From assembly GCF_056746865.1 (NCBI RefSeq), contig NZ_JBWKMP010000008.1: a stretch of 4,315 nt of DNA; one strand, written 5' to 3'. Below are positions 1,907 to 4,053 of this stretch, one piece after another. The notes under the pieces were generated by a model, which ran no database searches, was not told the origin of the DNA, and saw only the letters and a list, made by a program, of their open reading frames with translations. Each line of letters begins with the position of its first letter. Position 1 is the first letter of the stretch. Source of the stretch: a plasmid. A program made the position numbers and the translations under genes.

Positions 1907-2015
1907 ATGAGCTGTGCTCAATGAGGCATTATGGTAAATTGTTATGGAGTGGGCATGTCTGTATATGATGCCTGGTGGTATGATTTTGTTTGTAACACTG
2001 GAAGGTTGTTGGAAT
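1907..2015 (+). promoter_or_regulatory. Upstream region of the endonuclease gene, containing TTATGGTAAAT (1929-1939; identical to the cer XerD arm, and readable as an extended -10 TGgTAAATT) and RBS GGAAGG (2000-2005)
   Basis: Sequence reading only. The promoter is not experimentally defined. Confidence 0.35.
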
Positions 2016-2939
2016 ATGGATTTAACAAATATTGAATTTATTAATGATGCCGCAATAAATAGGAGGCGTTACTGGACTAATGAAATTGTCAAATTAAGTG
2101 GGCATTTTGTTAATGACTCCAGTAGGGTTGAGGAGGAAATTATTTATGAAGTTTCCAAATCTGGATCTCAGGCTTTATTGGACCACCTTCGATTATGCAC
2201 AGCCATTCCTGAATCATATGAGCATGATTCAAGCGAAGAAAAGTTATATTCAAAGTATACAGACGCATTGATTTCTGAATGTTTTAAGTTTTTTGGTTTG
2301 AATAGCATTGTGTTAACTGAGAGGGCTGATGCGGCAGATGTAGAAGTTGTATGTGATAGTTATTCTTTTGTTGCTGATGCTAAAGTTTTTCGGTTAAGTC
2401 GAACAGCTAAAAATCAGAAAGATTTTAAAGTTCAAGCAATGGATGGTTGGAGGAATACTAAAGATTTCGCCATGGTTGTTTGTCCAATATATCAGCTTCC
2501 AGTTAAATCAAGTCAAATATATCAACAAGCTATTCTTCGCAATGTGTGTGTGTTTACTTATACTCATTTAGCTGTTCTGGTAAAGTATGCTGACATTGTT
2601 GGTAGTGATGTTAGGATATTGTTAGAGGAAATATTCAGATCTGTCATACTCATGAATCCAAGTAAGGATAGTGTGCAGTACTGGACTATGATTAATAGAA
2701 CGATGTTGAATTATGATAAGAGAATAGAAAAACTTTGGATTGATGAGCGAATTGCTACATCAGAGGGTATCTATGTGCTGAAAAAGATGGCAATAGAATA
2801 CCTCTCTTCCGAGAGAGGTAGAATTCTAAGCATGAGCAGAGAAGAGGCTGTAAGAGCTTTGATTAAAATGAATAAAATTGAAAGTAGAATTGAGCAGATT
2901 AAAAAAGTGACAGATAATAATATTCTGTCACTTAAATAA
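2016..2939 (+). CDS. Type II restriction endonuclease, HindIII family (predicted AAGCTT specificity); 307 aa from ATG 2016, with the open frame extending upstream to 1944
   Basis: Translation contains ...SFVADAKVFRLSRTAKNQKDFKVQAMDGWR..., which matches my memory of the HindIII catalytic region (ADAKSFRLSRTAKNQKDFKV, PD-D/ExK active site), plus further collinear similarity (EEKLYSK..., SREEAVRALIK...). Length is close to HindIII (300 aa). Start at 2016 is preferred because the 24 upstream codons look non-native. This would correspond to the EcoVIII-type enzyme if my recollection of pEC156 is right (unverified). Confidence 0.88.
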   Translation: MDLTNIEFINDAAINRRRYWTNEIVKLSGHFVNDSSRVEEEIIYEVSKSGSQALLDHLRLCTAIPESYEHDSSEEKLYSKYTDALISECFKFFGLNSIVLTERADAADVEVVCDSYSFVADAKVFRLSRTAKNQKDFKVQAMDGWRNTKDFAMVVCPIYQLPVKSSQIYQQAILRNVCVFTYTHLAVLVKYADIVGSDVRILLEEIFRSVILMNPSKDSVQYWTMINRTMLNYDKRIEKLWIDERIATSEGIYVLKKMAIEYLSSERGRILSMSREEAVRALIKMNKIESRIEQIKKVTDNNILSLK

Positions 2940-3854
2940 TTATTTGTTTAATCTCTTTATACTGGTCTCTACATATGTAGGGTTTATTTCGAAACCAATA
3001 TAATCCCTACCTAAATCTTTCGCTGCTACCAATGTAGAACCACTGCCACTAAAAGGGTCAATGACTAATTGACCTTTTTGTGTTGTTAATTCTATAAGTG
3101 TTTTCATTAAGGCTACAGGTTTTTGTGTTGGGTGTAATCCACTTTCATTGCTGGAAAATCCAGCTGTAATGACATTTTCAGGTTTGCCATTTCTTGCTAC
3201 AAATGCATCTTGATTATAAGCACCGACACCATGAATAATTGCATTATCTGCAATTGTGCCGCCAATTTTATATGGTTTAGAGAACCATAGTATGGGTTCA
3301 AAGGTTGGTTGTAGATTTCCAACTCGCCATCCATTCCATTTTTCTGCGTTTAATGTATCCCCGCGCCTTTCGTAAACGCAACTCAACCTTTGGGCTCTGT
3401 GAGGGGCTTTTACTCTCATCCATGCAATTATATCGCGAAGATTGAATCCAGCATCTTCCATTGCACATATGCATCGATGAGAAAATCTTCTGCCTGCAAA
3501 AATAATTGCACTGGCACCTGGTTTTAATACTCTGAACCATTCAGTAGCCCATTCTTCACACCATTGCTGATATTCTAATGGTATTTTCTTATCAGCCTCT
3601 GACCATCCATTTATTGGTTTTCCTCTTTTTTTAAAAATAGCACCTGCGTTTTTCTGCGCAGGGCTTGAACCTAGGTATGCGTTATTTGAGTTATTATGTA
3701 GCACATCCCAGTCTTCTGCTCCTATCCCATAAGGGATATCACTGAGTATTAAATGTGCATATTGTGATGGGAGTTTTTTTATTAATGATATCGAGTTACC
3801 ATTGGTAACGGTATTCTTTTTTATTTCATCAGGTAATTGGATCTTGTTTAACAT
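2940..3854 (-). CDS. DNA methyltransferase, beta-class (motif IV near the N-terminus, motif I near the C-terminus), amino-methyltransferase (N6-adenine by analogy to M.HindIII); 304 aa
   Basis: Motifs seen in the translation: LILSDIPYG (motif IV, DPPY-like), HPTQKP, VIDPFSGSGSTLVAA (FxGxG AdoMet-binding motif I). RBS AGGAA upstream of ATG at 3854 on the - strand. Convergent partner of the HindIII-like endonuclease. Confidence 0.9.
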   Translation of the reverse strand: MLNKIQLPDEIKKNTVTNGNSISLIKKLPSQYAHLILSDIPYGIGAEDWDVLHNNSNNAYLGSSPAQKNAGAIFKKRGKPINGWSEADKKIPLEYQQWCEEWATEWFRVLKPGASAIIFAGRRFSHRCICAMEDAGFNLRDIIAWMRVKAPHRAQRLSCVYERRGDTLNAEKWNGWRVGNLQPTFEPILWFSKPYKIGGTIADNAIIHGVGAYNQDAFVARNGKPENVITAGFSSNESGLHPTQKPVALMKTLIELTTQKGQLVIDPFSGSGSTLVAAKDLGRDYIGFEINPTYVETSIKRLNK

Positions 3855-3912
3855 CTAAATTCCTGCTCTTTCATAGCTTTAAAAACACGCTGATAGTATA
3901 CGTTAAAGTACC
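3855..3912 (-). promoter_or_regulatory. Candidate promoter/leader of the methyltransferase gene (-10-like TATACT, + strand 3895-3900), immediately adjacent to the RNA I terminator and RNA II promoter
   Basis: TATACT hexamer read on the - strand. No convincing -35. Placement is inferred. Confidence 0.3.
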
Positions 3913-3948
3913 TTGACGCAGGATTACCTTTCATCGTAGCCTTTCTGA
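3913..3948 (+). promoter_or_regulatory. RNA II promoter (-35 TTGACG 3913-3918; -10 candidate TAGCCT about 3937-3942)
   Basis: Position equivalent to the pBR322 RNA II promoter just upstream of the aaaaaacc...RNA I terminator sequence. The -10 assignment is approximate. Confidence 0.55.
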
Positions 3949-4053
3949 AAAGAAAAAACCGCCTTGCAGGGCGGTTTTTTCAAGGTTCAAAGAACTTGCA
4001 GGTTTTTGAACCACGGTAACTGGCTTTGTGGGAGCGCAGTCACCAAAATCTGT
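3949..4053 (-). ncRNA. RNAI: RNA I, the antisense copy-number control RNA (about 105 nt), complementary to the 5' end of RNA II
   Basis: 5' end placed by analogy with pBR322 RNA I (acagtatttggtatctgcgc... corresponds here to the reverse complement of gcgcagtcaccaaaatctgt). 3' end at the shared terminator hairpin. Confidence 0.8.
3953..3980 (-). terminator. RNA I terminator hairpin (aaaaaa-ccgcc-ttgcag-ggcgg-tttttt), which also forms the 5' stem-loop of RNA II
   Basis: Seen directly; equivalent to the pBR322 aaaaaaaccaccgctaccagcggtggtttgttt element. Confidence 0.8.

Follow-up and report, generated by a model that had tools for sequence, protein, structure and literature searches.

A predicted methyltransferase terminator within the last endonuclease codons at the tail-to-tail junction of the EcoVIII restriction-modification genes

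Background

HindIII of H. influenzae Rd and PsaI both have their endonuclease and methyltransferase genes arranged head to tail (PMC12294265), an order that a preliminary description of the present locus had given correctly for HindIII. EcoVIII, known from plasmid pEC156 of E. coli E1585-68 (Mruk & Kaczorowski 2003; PMC4743918; PMC6456624), possesses a homologous endonuclease and a homologous beta-class m6A methyltransferase and shares, according to the literature, their AAGCTT specificity, the sequence that is cleaved and methylated by EcoVIII (PMC4824078, PMC5974420). In contrast to HindIII and PsaI, its genes stand tail to tail with zero spacer, and this convergent order has been published before. 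Synthesis of the EcoVIII endonuclease is controlled at translation, through the rare AGG codons 16-17 (PMC6456624). The methyltransferase gene cloned alone (pEcoVIIIM) is expressed from its own promoter. In the EcoVIII and pEC156 literature covered, which comprises reports other than the primary 2003 description, we found no other control of EcoVIII, nothing on terminators, antisense RNA or transcript mapping, and no description of a hairpin in the 3' codons of the endonuclease gene or of its conservation. How endonuclease is kept below methyltransferase in type II systems without a C protein is only partly understood.

Convergent and antisense arrangements are known from several other systems. 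In AhdI and Esp1396I, putative bidirectional terminators stand between the converging transcription units (PMC2275141, PMC2691842). These two and the LlaCI-like pAW153 resemble EcoVIII in having a self-complementary element between converging endonuclease and methyltransferase units, which in their case is proposed to stop both transcripts. In that group the hairpin occupies an intergenic spacer and the endonuclease is under a C protein, whereas EcoVIII has no spacer and no C protein, and its hairpin lies within the last 11 endonuclease codons. At convergent E. coli gene pairs, hairpins are reported to program head-on collisions of RNA polymerase (Ju et al. 2019, as cited in bioRxiv 10.1101/2022.10.23.513370). 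The EcoVIII junction may be similar to the overlapping bidirectional terminators of E. coli in that a boundary hairpin, weak by itself in at least one direction, would give short overlapping 3' ends. EcoVIII differs in that the element is inside coding sequence and expression of the endonuclease is probably low; in the collision model, low expression of this kind lowers collision-driven termination. EcoVIII may also be compared with EcoRI, Eco29kI and the type I toxin-antitoxin pairs par/Fst and BsrG/SR4, the last two with 3'-overlapping convergent RNAs; all are modules of toxin-antitoxin character whose toxic member is adjusted by antisense transcription or by convergent promoters. In EcoRI and Eco29kI, however, the genes stand in tandem, and dedicated reverse promoters inside the endonuclease gene act at the mRNA 5' end, whereas any antisense RNA of EcoVIII would be supplied by the mRNA of the partner gene and would lie at the 3' ends.

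The plasmid and its restriction-modification genes

The window, meaning the whole stretch of 4,315 nucleotides that was analysed, is a complete ColE1-type plasmid. The features that define this type, RNAI/RNAII replication control and Rop, are represented by an Rfam match to RNAI at 3950-4051 on the minus strand (85.8 bits) and by the ORF at 560-754, which is the Rop CDS annotated in identical records. Plasmids that are 100% identical over 4315 bp carry annotations for a HindIII-family REase, an MTase and Rop.

The endonuclease gene ecoVIIIR (R; 2016..2939, plus strand), assigned from its ORF and homology, encodes a HindIII-family type II restriction endonuclease of 307 amino acids. PGAP and the raw ORF list place its start at ATG 1944, giving 331 amino acids; when started at 2016 the protein has 307 amino acids and 35,556 Da, with AGG as codons 16-17, in agreement with PMC6456624. 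These tandem rare Arg codons (AGG16-AGG17; 2061..2066, plus strand) are the ones published as limiting endonuclease synthesis at translation. The protein matches the HindIII structures 2e52 and 3a4k over residues 42-296 (phmmer, E=1.8e-36), PF09518 is found in all close homologue clusters, and the PGAP name is 'HindIII family type II restriction endonuclease'. The methyltransferase gene ecoVIIIM (M; 2940..3854, minus strand), assigned from its ORF and Pfam, encodes an N6-adenine (beta-class) DNA methyltransferase of 304 amino acids, with the Pfam domain N6_N4_Mtase (PF01555, E=7.5e-49) at residues 34-299 and AGA122-AGA123 as in PMC6456624. The structure match and PF01555 together confirm the HindIII-family endonuclease and methyltransferase pair named in the preliminary description.

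The published features of EcoVIII, namely protein sizes, rare-codon clusters and primer sites, are all matched in the window; the 3' parts of both primers of PMC6456624, with their added restriction-site tails removed, match at 1822 (plus strand) and 2102 (minus strand). Compared with EcoVIII/pEC156, the 307- and 304-residue proteins, AGG16-17, AGA122-123, the convergent layout and the lack of a C protein are all alike, as is the ColE1-type backbone with Rop and RNAI; the plasmid measures 4315 bp here and 4312 bp in the published description. The window is a pEC156-type ColE1 plasmid with the published EcoVIII restriction-modification system, a HindIII isoschizomer, and probably represents that very system or a near-identical copy with no substantive differences from pEC156. 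The present finding is mostly a rediscovery of a characterised plasmid system, to which the hairpin in the R codons adds one modest new detail.

No C protein is evident, as the preliminary description had also stated. The sole ORF upstream of R (1585-1878) has no Pfam or NCBIfam match, so that its candidacy as a C protein is unsupported, and the whole-plasmid scan places a strong terminator (1885-1900) between it and R. The arrangement typical of C-protein-controlled systems, a small HTH gene upstream of R with C-boxes, is absent. Methylation feedback through promoter AAGCTT sites is excluded as well, since the whole plasmid contains no AAGCTT site.

The stop-to-stop junction in the HindIII family

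The R ORF (1944..2939, plus strand) ends with TAA at 2937-2939, and the M ORF (2940..3854, minus strand) ends with a stop that reads TTA on the plus strand at 2940-2942. There are 0 bases between the two stops, as first described, and both are contained in AAATAATTATTT (2934..2945), which is indeed a perfect 12-bp palindrome. The palindrome results from both genes finishing AAA-TAA, where AAA is a Lys codon: TAA/TTA, with the slash at the gene boundary, is palindromic by construction, and its extension requires just AAA as the last codon in both genes. One explanation would make the palindrome itself functional: a protein might bind it as an operator, recombination or the joining of cassettes might take place there, or it might form a cruciform. 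It is perfect and centred exactly at the gene boundary, and another perfect 12-bp palindrome stands 24 nt off (2969-2980). Against such a function, the palindrome is kept in no relative, even where the same zero spacing occurs, and is broken in all those examined (AAGTAG/TTATTT, AGTTGA/TTATTT, TATTAA/TTATAT, AGTTAA/TTAATT). Roughly half of composition-matched shuffles have such a palindrome: 48% of dinucleotide shuffles of the restriction-modification module (36% GC) contain one or more perfect palindromes with a length of at least 12 bp. Its RNA form would be only a 4-bp A-U stem, and the two AAA-TAA gene ends explain it fully. The palindrome, unconserved and of chance-level frequency, shows no sign of function and was rejected as a functional site; the comparative data bring this explanation, which we regard as highly improbable, close to refutation.

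HindIII-family loci were classified with a tree of R into 25 convergent loci, 19 tandem loci with an orthologous M and 41 tandem loci with a different M. All 25 convergent loci fall in one contiguous block of the tree, consisting of two adjacent clades and covering several phyla. The convergent layout had been taken for a rearrangement relative to the HindIII prototype; as one such block, it is not a local event. In 23 of the 25 convergent loci the stop codons are spaced between a 17-nt overlap and a 5-nt gap (0, +2, +4, +5, -4, -11, -15 and -17), with true coding overlaps of 4-17 nt among them and spacing 0 in five distinct lineages. Among relatives that retain the pair the full range is -17 to +102. 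The module is carried by different replicons, including ColE1, Rep3 and an IncF plasmid where it lies beside IS26. Judged from these comparisons of sequence, the tight junction is inherited throughout the convergent clade of HindIII-family systems.

The same observations could be accounted for by a junction without any regulatory role, whose tight packing would reflect ancestry and selection for a small mobile cassette in which the two genes cannot be separated. The arrangement is inherited inside one block of the R tree, the module occurs on ColE1, Rep3 and IncF replicons, and the spacing drifts from -17 to +102 while the pair is never lost. Under this explanation the hairpin described below would be an mRNA 3'-end stabiliser or incidental to a conserved C-terminal peptide, and its loop and part of its arms do encode a family-wide V-x-D-N-x-I motif. 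Two observations speak against it: the final 12 codons of R are unusually conserved at synonymous positions, and pairs change in a compensatory manner in places where the residues differ. We consider a junction without regulatory role rather unlikely.

A hairpin at the 3' end of the endonuclease coding sequence

The last 11 codons of R contain a conserved hairpin (2905..2933) with the stem AAGUGACAGA/UCUGUCACUU, supported by fold z-scores, covariation and synonymous conservation. The AU-rich stem has 10 bp, 2905-2914 pairing with 2924-2933, with G-C in 4 of the 10 pairs, and encloses a loop of 9 nt. Fold z-scores are -4.4 on the plus strand and -5.1 on the minus strand; the core hairpin (2907-2931) has -9.7 kcal/mol and is weaker than the canonical terminators of the plasmid. 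The preliminary description had seen no GC-rich terminator hairpin at the junction. There is indeed no intergenic room for one, but the statement does not hold for the conserved 10-bp stem with its four G-C pairs and U6 tract inside the coding sequence. The 3' arm of this hairpin falls within the interval 2925-2955 to which that description referred.

Pairing is maintained in 80% of cells across relatives, compared with 34-50% in slid controls (n=10 sequences from about three lineages). Five pairs show double changes, with a covariation score of 0.273 compared with at most 0.144 in slid controls; the 10 sequences of about three lineages provide few independent events, and the structure scored was derived from the window itself, which gives it an advantage over the slid controls. 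Among 297 windows scored for synonymous conservation, the one formed by the last 12 R codons takes third place, while the 3' end of M is unremarkable. In the Xenorhabdus/Providencia group compensatory pair changes occur despite altered residues (T/D/S to N/N/L), indicating selection on the nucleic-acid structure and not on the peptide.

On the M-sense strand a stable stem-loop is formed by 2931-2907, and a U6 tract (2901..2906, minus strand; AAAAAA on the plus strand) lies directly 3' of the core, so that the core stem is followed by UUUUUUAAUCU, as in an intrinsic terminator. U-rich tails are present at the same place in nine of ten close sequences, the window included; the tail is poor in one close relative, L093. 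The U-rich tail is also under coding constraint through Lys, Ile and Gln codons. On the R-sense strand the tail after the hairpin is AAAUAAUUAUUUGUUU, with its first U-run only 7-8 nt past the stem, and the boundary hairpin, itself conserved, thus has a U-tract on one side only. Where relatives possess a spacer, they carry a hairpin there instead: in the relative L090 it is a 12-bp stem with U6 towards M, and in the LlaCI-like pAW153 it is AU-rich. A search among distant convergent members in other phyla gave no consistent comparable hairpin, and Rfam contains no known RNA matching the junction.

Predicted transcript ends

Our explanation of the locus joins the published tail-to-tail junction of EcoVIII, its inherited tight spacing and the conserved hairpin in R as the predicted terminator of M, and we give it a probability of somewhat over one half (about 0.55). 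The hairpin would act as an intrinsic terminator of M mRNA, since on the M-sense strand it begins 7 nt beyond the M stop and leads into UUUUUU; its place within the R coding sequence would reflect the lack of a spacer that could accommodate it. The 3' end of M mRNA is predicted at about 2897-2905. The first description had allowed that transcripts may terminate inside the opposite gene, and a terminator predicted in the R codons would fit that alternative. If this is true, a compact, mobile, toxin-antitoxin-like cassette insulates its converging transcripts without a spacer.

Terminator candidates were ranked by a score d, our own re-implementation of the d'Aubenton-Carafa type, which serves ranking only. 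The standard scan overlooks the junction hairpin, as its loop limit is 8 nt and the loop has 9 nt. The top of the whole-plasmid scan is held by three strong canonical bidirectional terminators (six entries, d=16-28). The next two candidates are 3056-3074 on the plus strand (d=4.3) and 2931-2907 on the minus strand (d=2.6), the latter ranking eighth. The M-side hairpin is borderline, with d=+2.6 in the window and -5 to -21 in relatives, and comes first or second among the minus-strand candidates in nine of ten close sequences, again counting the window. On the R-sense strand, which lacks the U-tract of an intrinsic terminator, d is -26.

For the R transcript the hairpin, having no adjacent U-tract in this direction, would be a pause or collision point, like the bidirectional terminators with overlapping 3' ends at convergent gene pairs of E. 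coli. Any remaining read-through from R might stop at the hairpin of 3056-3074, or Rho might end it on the untranslated C-rich RNA; the mRNAs would then overlap at their 3' ends by just tens of nucleotides, or by up to about 180. The element at 3056..3079 (plus strand; d=4.3) is located in M coding sequence, 117-140 nt beyond the R stop, and consists of the window-specific hairpin GGUCAAU-GACUA-AUUGACC followed by UUUUU; it is absent from a variant of about 77% identity. Transcripts that read through from R might end there. A weak hairpin, CUCUACAUAUGUAGGG with UUUAUUU (2967..2982, plus strand; d=-22, unconserved), is located 28-43 nt beyond the R stop. It contains the second perfect 12-bp palindrome, CTACATATGTAG (2969-2980), 24 nt from AAATAATTATTT. 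Both hairpins are missing from relatives and were rejected as conserved R terminators.

Balance of endonuclease and methyltransferase

The proportion of endonuclease to methyltransferase would depend mainly on the genes' separate promoters and on the published block that rare codons impose on translation of R, with convergent transcription as a secondary influence at most. A stronger role for convergence was raised in the preliminary description: without effective termination at the junction, interference and long 3' antisense duplexes would set the ratio in place of a C protein. The zero spacer and the lack of a C-protein-like gene are consistent with this, as are the absence of AAGCTT, and hence of methylation feedback, from the plasmid, the borderline quality of the hairpin as a terminator with no U-tract in the R sense, the antisense or convergent-promoter control of EcoRI and Eco29kI, and the 3' overlap usual among convergent members, some of which have coding overlaps of 4-17 nt. 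Yet the conserved hairpin with U6 occurs exactly at the place expected of an M terminator, and the best non-canonical terminator candidates of the plasmid cover both directions. Rho should curtail read-through, because the untranslated RNA is C-rich and G-poor. Moreover, the published control of R is translational (PMC6456624), and ecoVIIIM alone (pEcoVIIIM) is expressed from its own promoter. Control of the ratio by interference therefore seems decidedly unlikely.

A coupling of the two genes through the predicted M terminator may also be imagined. Located in the last R codons and only moderately efficient, this terminator would leak, and M transcription would run antisense into R with collisions of polymerases, making R output inverse to M promoter activity. 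Such coupling could provide a C-protein-free, methylase-first delay on entering a new host, and the zero or negative spacing, near-universal in the convergent clade, would have been selected for it. We regard this proposal as speculative and doubtful. If the hairpin acts as predicted, synonymous mutants of its stem offer a simple handle on 3' antisense overlap and on the balance of R and M.

Promoter-like hexamer pairs number 9, compared with a shuffle expectation of 9.0, and none is conserved; the pair at 2890-2918, antisense into M, was discarded on both grounds. For about 130 nt past both stops C exceeds G, a composition compatible with a Rho back-up.

Identity of the plasmid and its restriction-modification system

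The window is a complete circular ColE1-type plasmid of 4315 bases, with RNAI (Rfam) at 3950-4051 on the minus strand. Three records of 4315 bp from E. coli and Salmonella (CP056658.1, NZ_CP032493.1 and CP098986.1) are 100% identical to it over the full length, and their annotation lists a HindIII-family endonuclease, a site-specific DNA methyltransferase and Rop; two further 4315-bp records match it at 99.8-99.9%. The endonuclease (R) matches the solved HindIII structures (E=1.8e-36) and its homologue clusters carry PF09518, while the methyltransferase (M) is an N6_N4_Mtase (PF01555, E=7.5e-49). Read from the ATG at 2016, R is 307 amino acids long with AGG at codons 16-17, and M has 304 amino acids with AGA at codons 122-123. 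The natural ecoVIIIR promoter was cloned with two primers (PMC6456624) whose 3' parts match the window at 1822 and 2102. Since annotations, protein sizes, AGG/AGA codons and primer sites agree, the sequence identifies the system as EcoVIII (AAGCTT, a HindIII isoschizomer) of pEC156, published at 4312 bp (PMC4743918), or of a near-identical plasmid. The EcoVIII system on this plasmid is already known. In PGAP records and protein cluster P0001, R has 331 amino acids and starts at ATG 1944, with 1944-2015 extra; as the start at 2016 fits the published EcoVIII features, the database start appears to lie 24 codons too far upstream.

Gene order and junction spacing in the HindIII family

R and M were located in 80 loci from one-genome-per-species contigs and in 12 closer relatives. 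They are convergent at 25 loci, in tandem (R then M) with an orthologous methyltransferase at 19, and in tandem with a different methyltransferase at 41. Hosts of the convergent loci extend from Enterobacterales through Acidobacteria, Chloroflexi and Verrucomicrobia, and in a neighbour-joining tree of the endonucleases these loci occupy one contiguous block of two adjacent clades. HindIII itself is head-to-tail, as the preliminary description had stated, and forms with PsaI the sole such pair among characterised HindIII-isospecific systems (PMC12294265). This spread, the tree block and the published gene orders indicate that the convergent order is not peculiar to this plasmid; it is an old family-level state, already in the literature, and not the local rearrangement first supposed.

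Stop-to-stop spacing at the convergent loci (negative values being overlaps) is 0 (five lineages), +2, +4, +5 (four), -4 (five), -11 (four), -15, -17 (two), +46 and +102, so that in 23 of the 25 the stops overlap or lie no more than 5 nt from abutment. By these sequence comparisons the tight tail-to-tail junction is conserved.

The methyltransferase behind the approximately 41 differently paired tandem loci (L010-L084), which account for roughly one in two HindIII-family endonuclease genes of the sampled genomes, matches M.EcoVIII weakly (25-44%, C-terminal part), and the endonuclease family is thus paired with at least two methyltransferase lineages. The convergent cassette is found on varied replicons, including p75PM1-IncFII-mcr-3.5 (L002), Rep3 plasmids (L086 and L090) and a ColE1 plasmid with Rop and a ProQ-like gene (L089), and in one of these cases it lies with a ColE1 remnant beside IS26 in an 88-kb IncF mcr-3.5 plasmid. 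This shows that the two genes travel together as one module. A 1008-bp contig in a draft assembly of Zoogloea sp. 1C4 (L005, very low coverage of about 1.1) encodes an endonuclease 100% identical to that of the window (tblastn, residues 1-294); its most likely source is contamination or carry-over, not Zoogloea itself.

A conserved hairpin in the last codons of R

The junction is as first described: the R stop TAA (2937-2939) is followed with zero spacer by the M stop (TTA on the plus strand, 2940-2942), and the perfect palindrome AAATAATTATTT (2934-2945) covers both. This 12-bp palindrome was rejected as a meaningful element. Any TAA|TTA junction is its own reverse complement, and the longer palindrome needs merely an AAA lysine codon ending both genes; when the R-M module (36% GC) is shuffled with its dinucleotides preserved, 48% of the shuffles contain a perfect palindrome of at least 12 bp, and the palindrome of the window is disrupted in all relatives, including the four other zero-spacing lineages. 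It is incidental. Another perfect palindrome, CTACATATGTAG (2969-2980), lies 24 nt from the first, within the 3' end of the M coding sequence, and is not conserved in relatives, and a 14-bp one, TGCATAGCTATGCA (1376-1389), lies in the non-coding region upstream of a small ORF (1585-1878).

The claim that the junction lacks any terminator-like hairpin proved wrong. Immediately 5' of the R stop, a stem AAGTGACAGA / TCTGTCACTT (2905-2914 / 2924-2933) with a 9-nt loop can form on both strands, wholly within the last 11 R codons (KVTDNNILSLK), and it folds far better than shuffles (z = -4.4 and -5.1 on the two strands). In an alignment of 10 distinct relatives (A3), 80% of cells in the 14-pair extended helix are paired, against 34-50% in controls with the partner slid by 1-3 columns; both-sided changes occur at 5 pairs, and the covariation score is 0.273 against at most 0.144 in controls, from few independent lineages and for a structure that was read off the window itself. 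Sequences of the Xenorhabdus/Providencia group have GGAAAGUA.../...UACUUUCC as their stem, and the encoded residues are also altered; a stem kept while residues change argues for selection on the hairpin as structure rather than as peptide. Synonymous conservation across the five closest lineages puts the last 12 R codons in third place among 297 windows (0.18, mean 0.45), and the M 3' end is unremarkable.

Predicted transcription termination at the junction

Both strands of the plasmid were scanned with our own hairpin-plus-U-tail score (d), which follows a d'Aubenton-Carafa-type formula and is approximate, serving for ranking only. Three canonical bidirectional terminators (d 16-28) were found at 1118-1155, 1885-1900 and 3959-3974, the last being the RNAI terminator. 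That at 1118-1155, a 38-nt hairpin with A6 and T5-6 on its flanks, is very stable (-26 to -28 kcal/mol) and lies in a region without a convincing ORF. The next two are the M-side junction hairpin (minus strand, 2931-2907, d=2.6) and a plus-strand hairpin (3056-3074, d=4.3) that lies inside M, 117-135 nt past the R stop. In the M sense the junction hairpin starts 7 nt past the stop and is followed by UUUUUUAAUCU; in the R sense it has no adjacent U-tract. Among 10 close sequences, window included, this hairpin ranks first or second of the minus-strand candidates in 9, and 3056-3074 is found in this plasmid alone. Relatives with a spacer have the hairpin there instead, as a 12-bp stem with an M-side U6 tract (L090) or an AU-rich hairpin (LlaCI-like pAW153). 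Read-through RNA beyond either stop goes untranslated and, over some 130 nt, is rich in C and poor in G (C/G 2-4), which, from what is known of antisense suppression in E. coli, makes Rho a plausible back-up past both stops.

Most likely, M transcripts would terminate at the hairpin embedded in R, and R transcripts would pause there and then end when their polymerases collide with those of M, at the downstream hairpin, or via Rho; the two mRNAs would share some tens of nucleotides, with about 180 as the upper figure. Of the original interpretation, the missing spacer, the missing C protein (a controller of R-M gene expression) and the unavoidable 3' overlap stand, but a terminator-like hairpin does exist. 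Such an arrangement would be similar to that of AhdI and Esp1396I, whose convergent units have putative bidirectional terminators between them (PMC2275141, PMC2691842), and to the model of convergent E. coli genes in which hairpins programme head-on collisions, but the EcoVIII element lies within coding sequence. What is modestly new is the tight junction across the family together with the conserved hairpin embedded in a gene, although the hairpin may already stand in the primary EcoVIII papers.

Control of the R:M ratio and neighbouring elements

As was initially proposed, convergent transcription might conceivably stand in for a C protein and itself set the ratio of R to M. No C-like gene was found on the plasmid: the plus-strand ORF at 1585-1878 (97 aa; 75 aa in RefSeq), just upstream of R and followed by the strong terminator 1885-1900, has no Pfam or NCBIfam match and is not evidently a C protein. 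There is also no AAGCTT site for methylation feedback in the whole plasmid (0, against 1.9 expected from shuffles), consistent with site avoidance but not significant alone. However, ecoVIIIM cloned alone works from its own promoter, and the sole EcoVIII control found in the literature covered is translational, through the rare codons AGG16-AGG17 (PMC6456624).

A promoter-like pair, TTGAGC-17-GATAAT (2890-2918, plus strand), overlaps the hairpin 5' arm and points antisense into M; a variant with 77% identity does not conserve it, and in total promoter-like sites are as frequent as expected from shuffles. RNAI and its terminator lie directly upstream of M on the same strand (region 3855-4051). 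By analogy with ColE1, TTGACG on the plus strand at about 3913 would belong to the RNAII promoter and stand back-to-back with the M promoter region, so that M expression and replication-primer transcription may affect each other.
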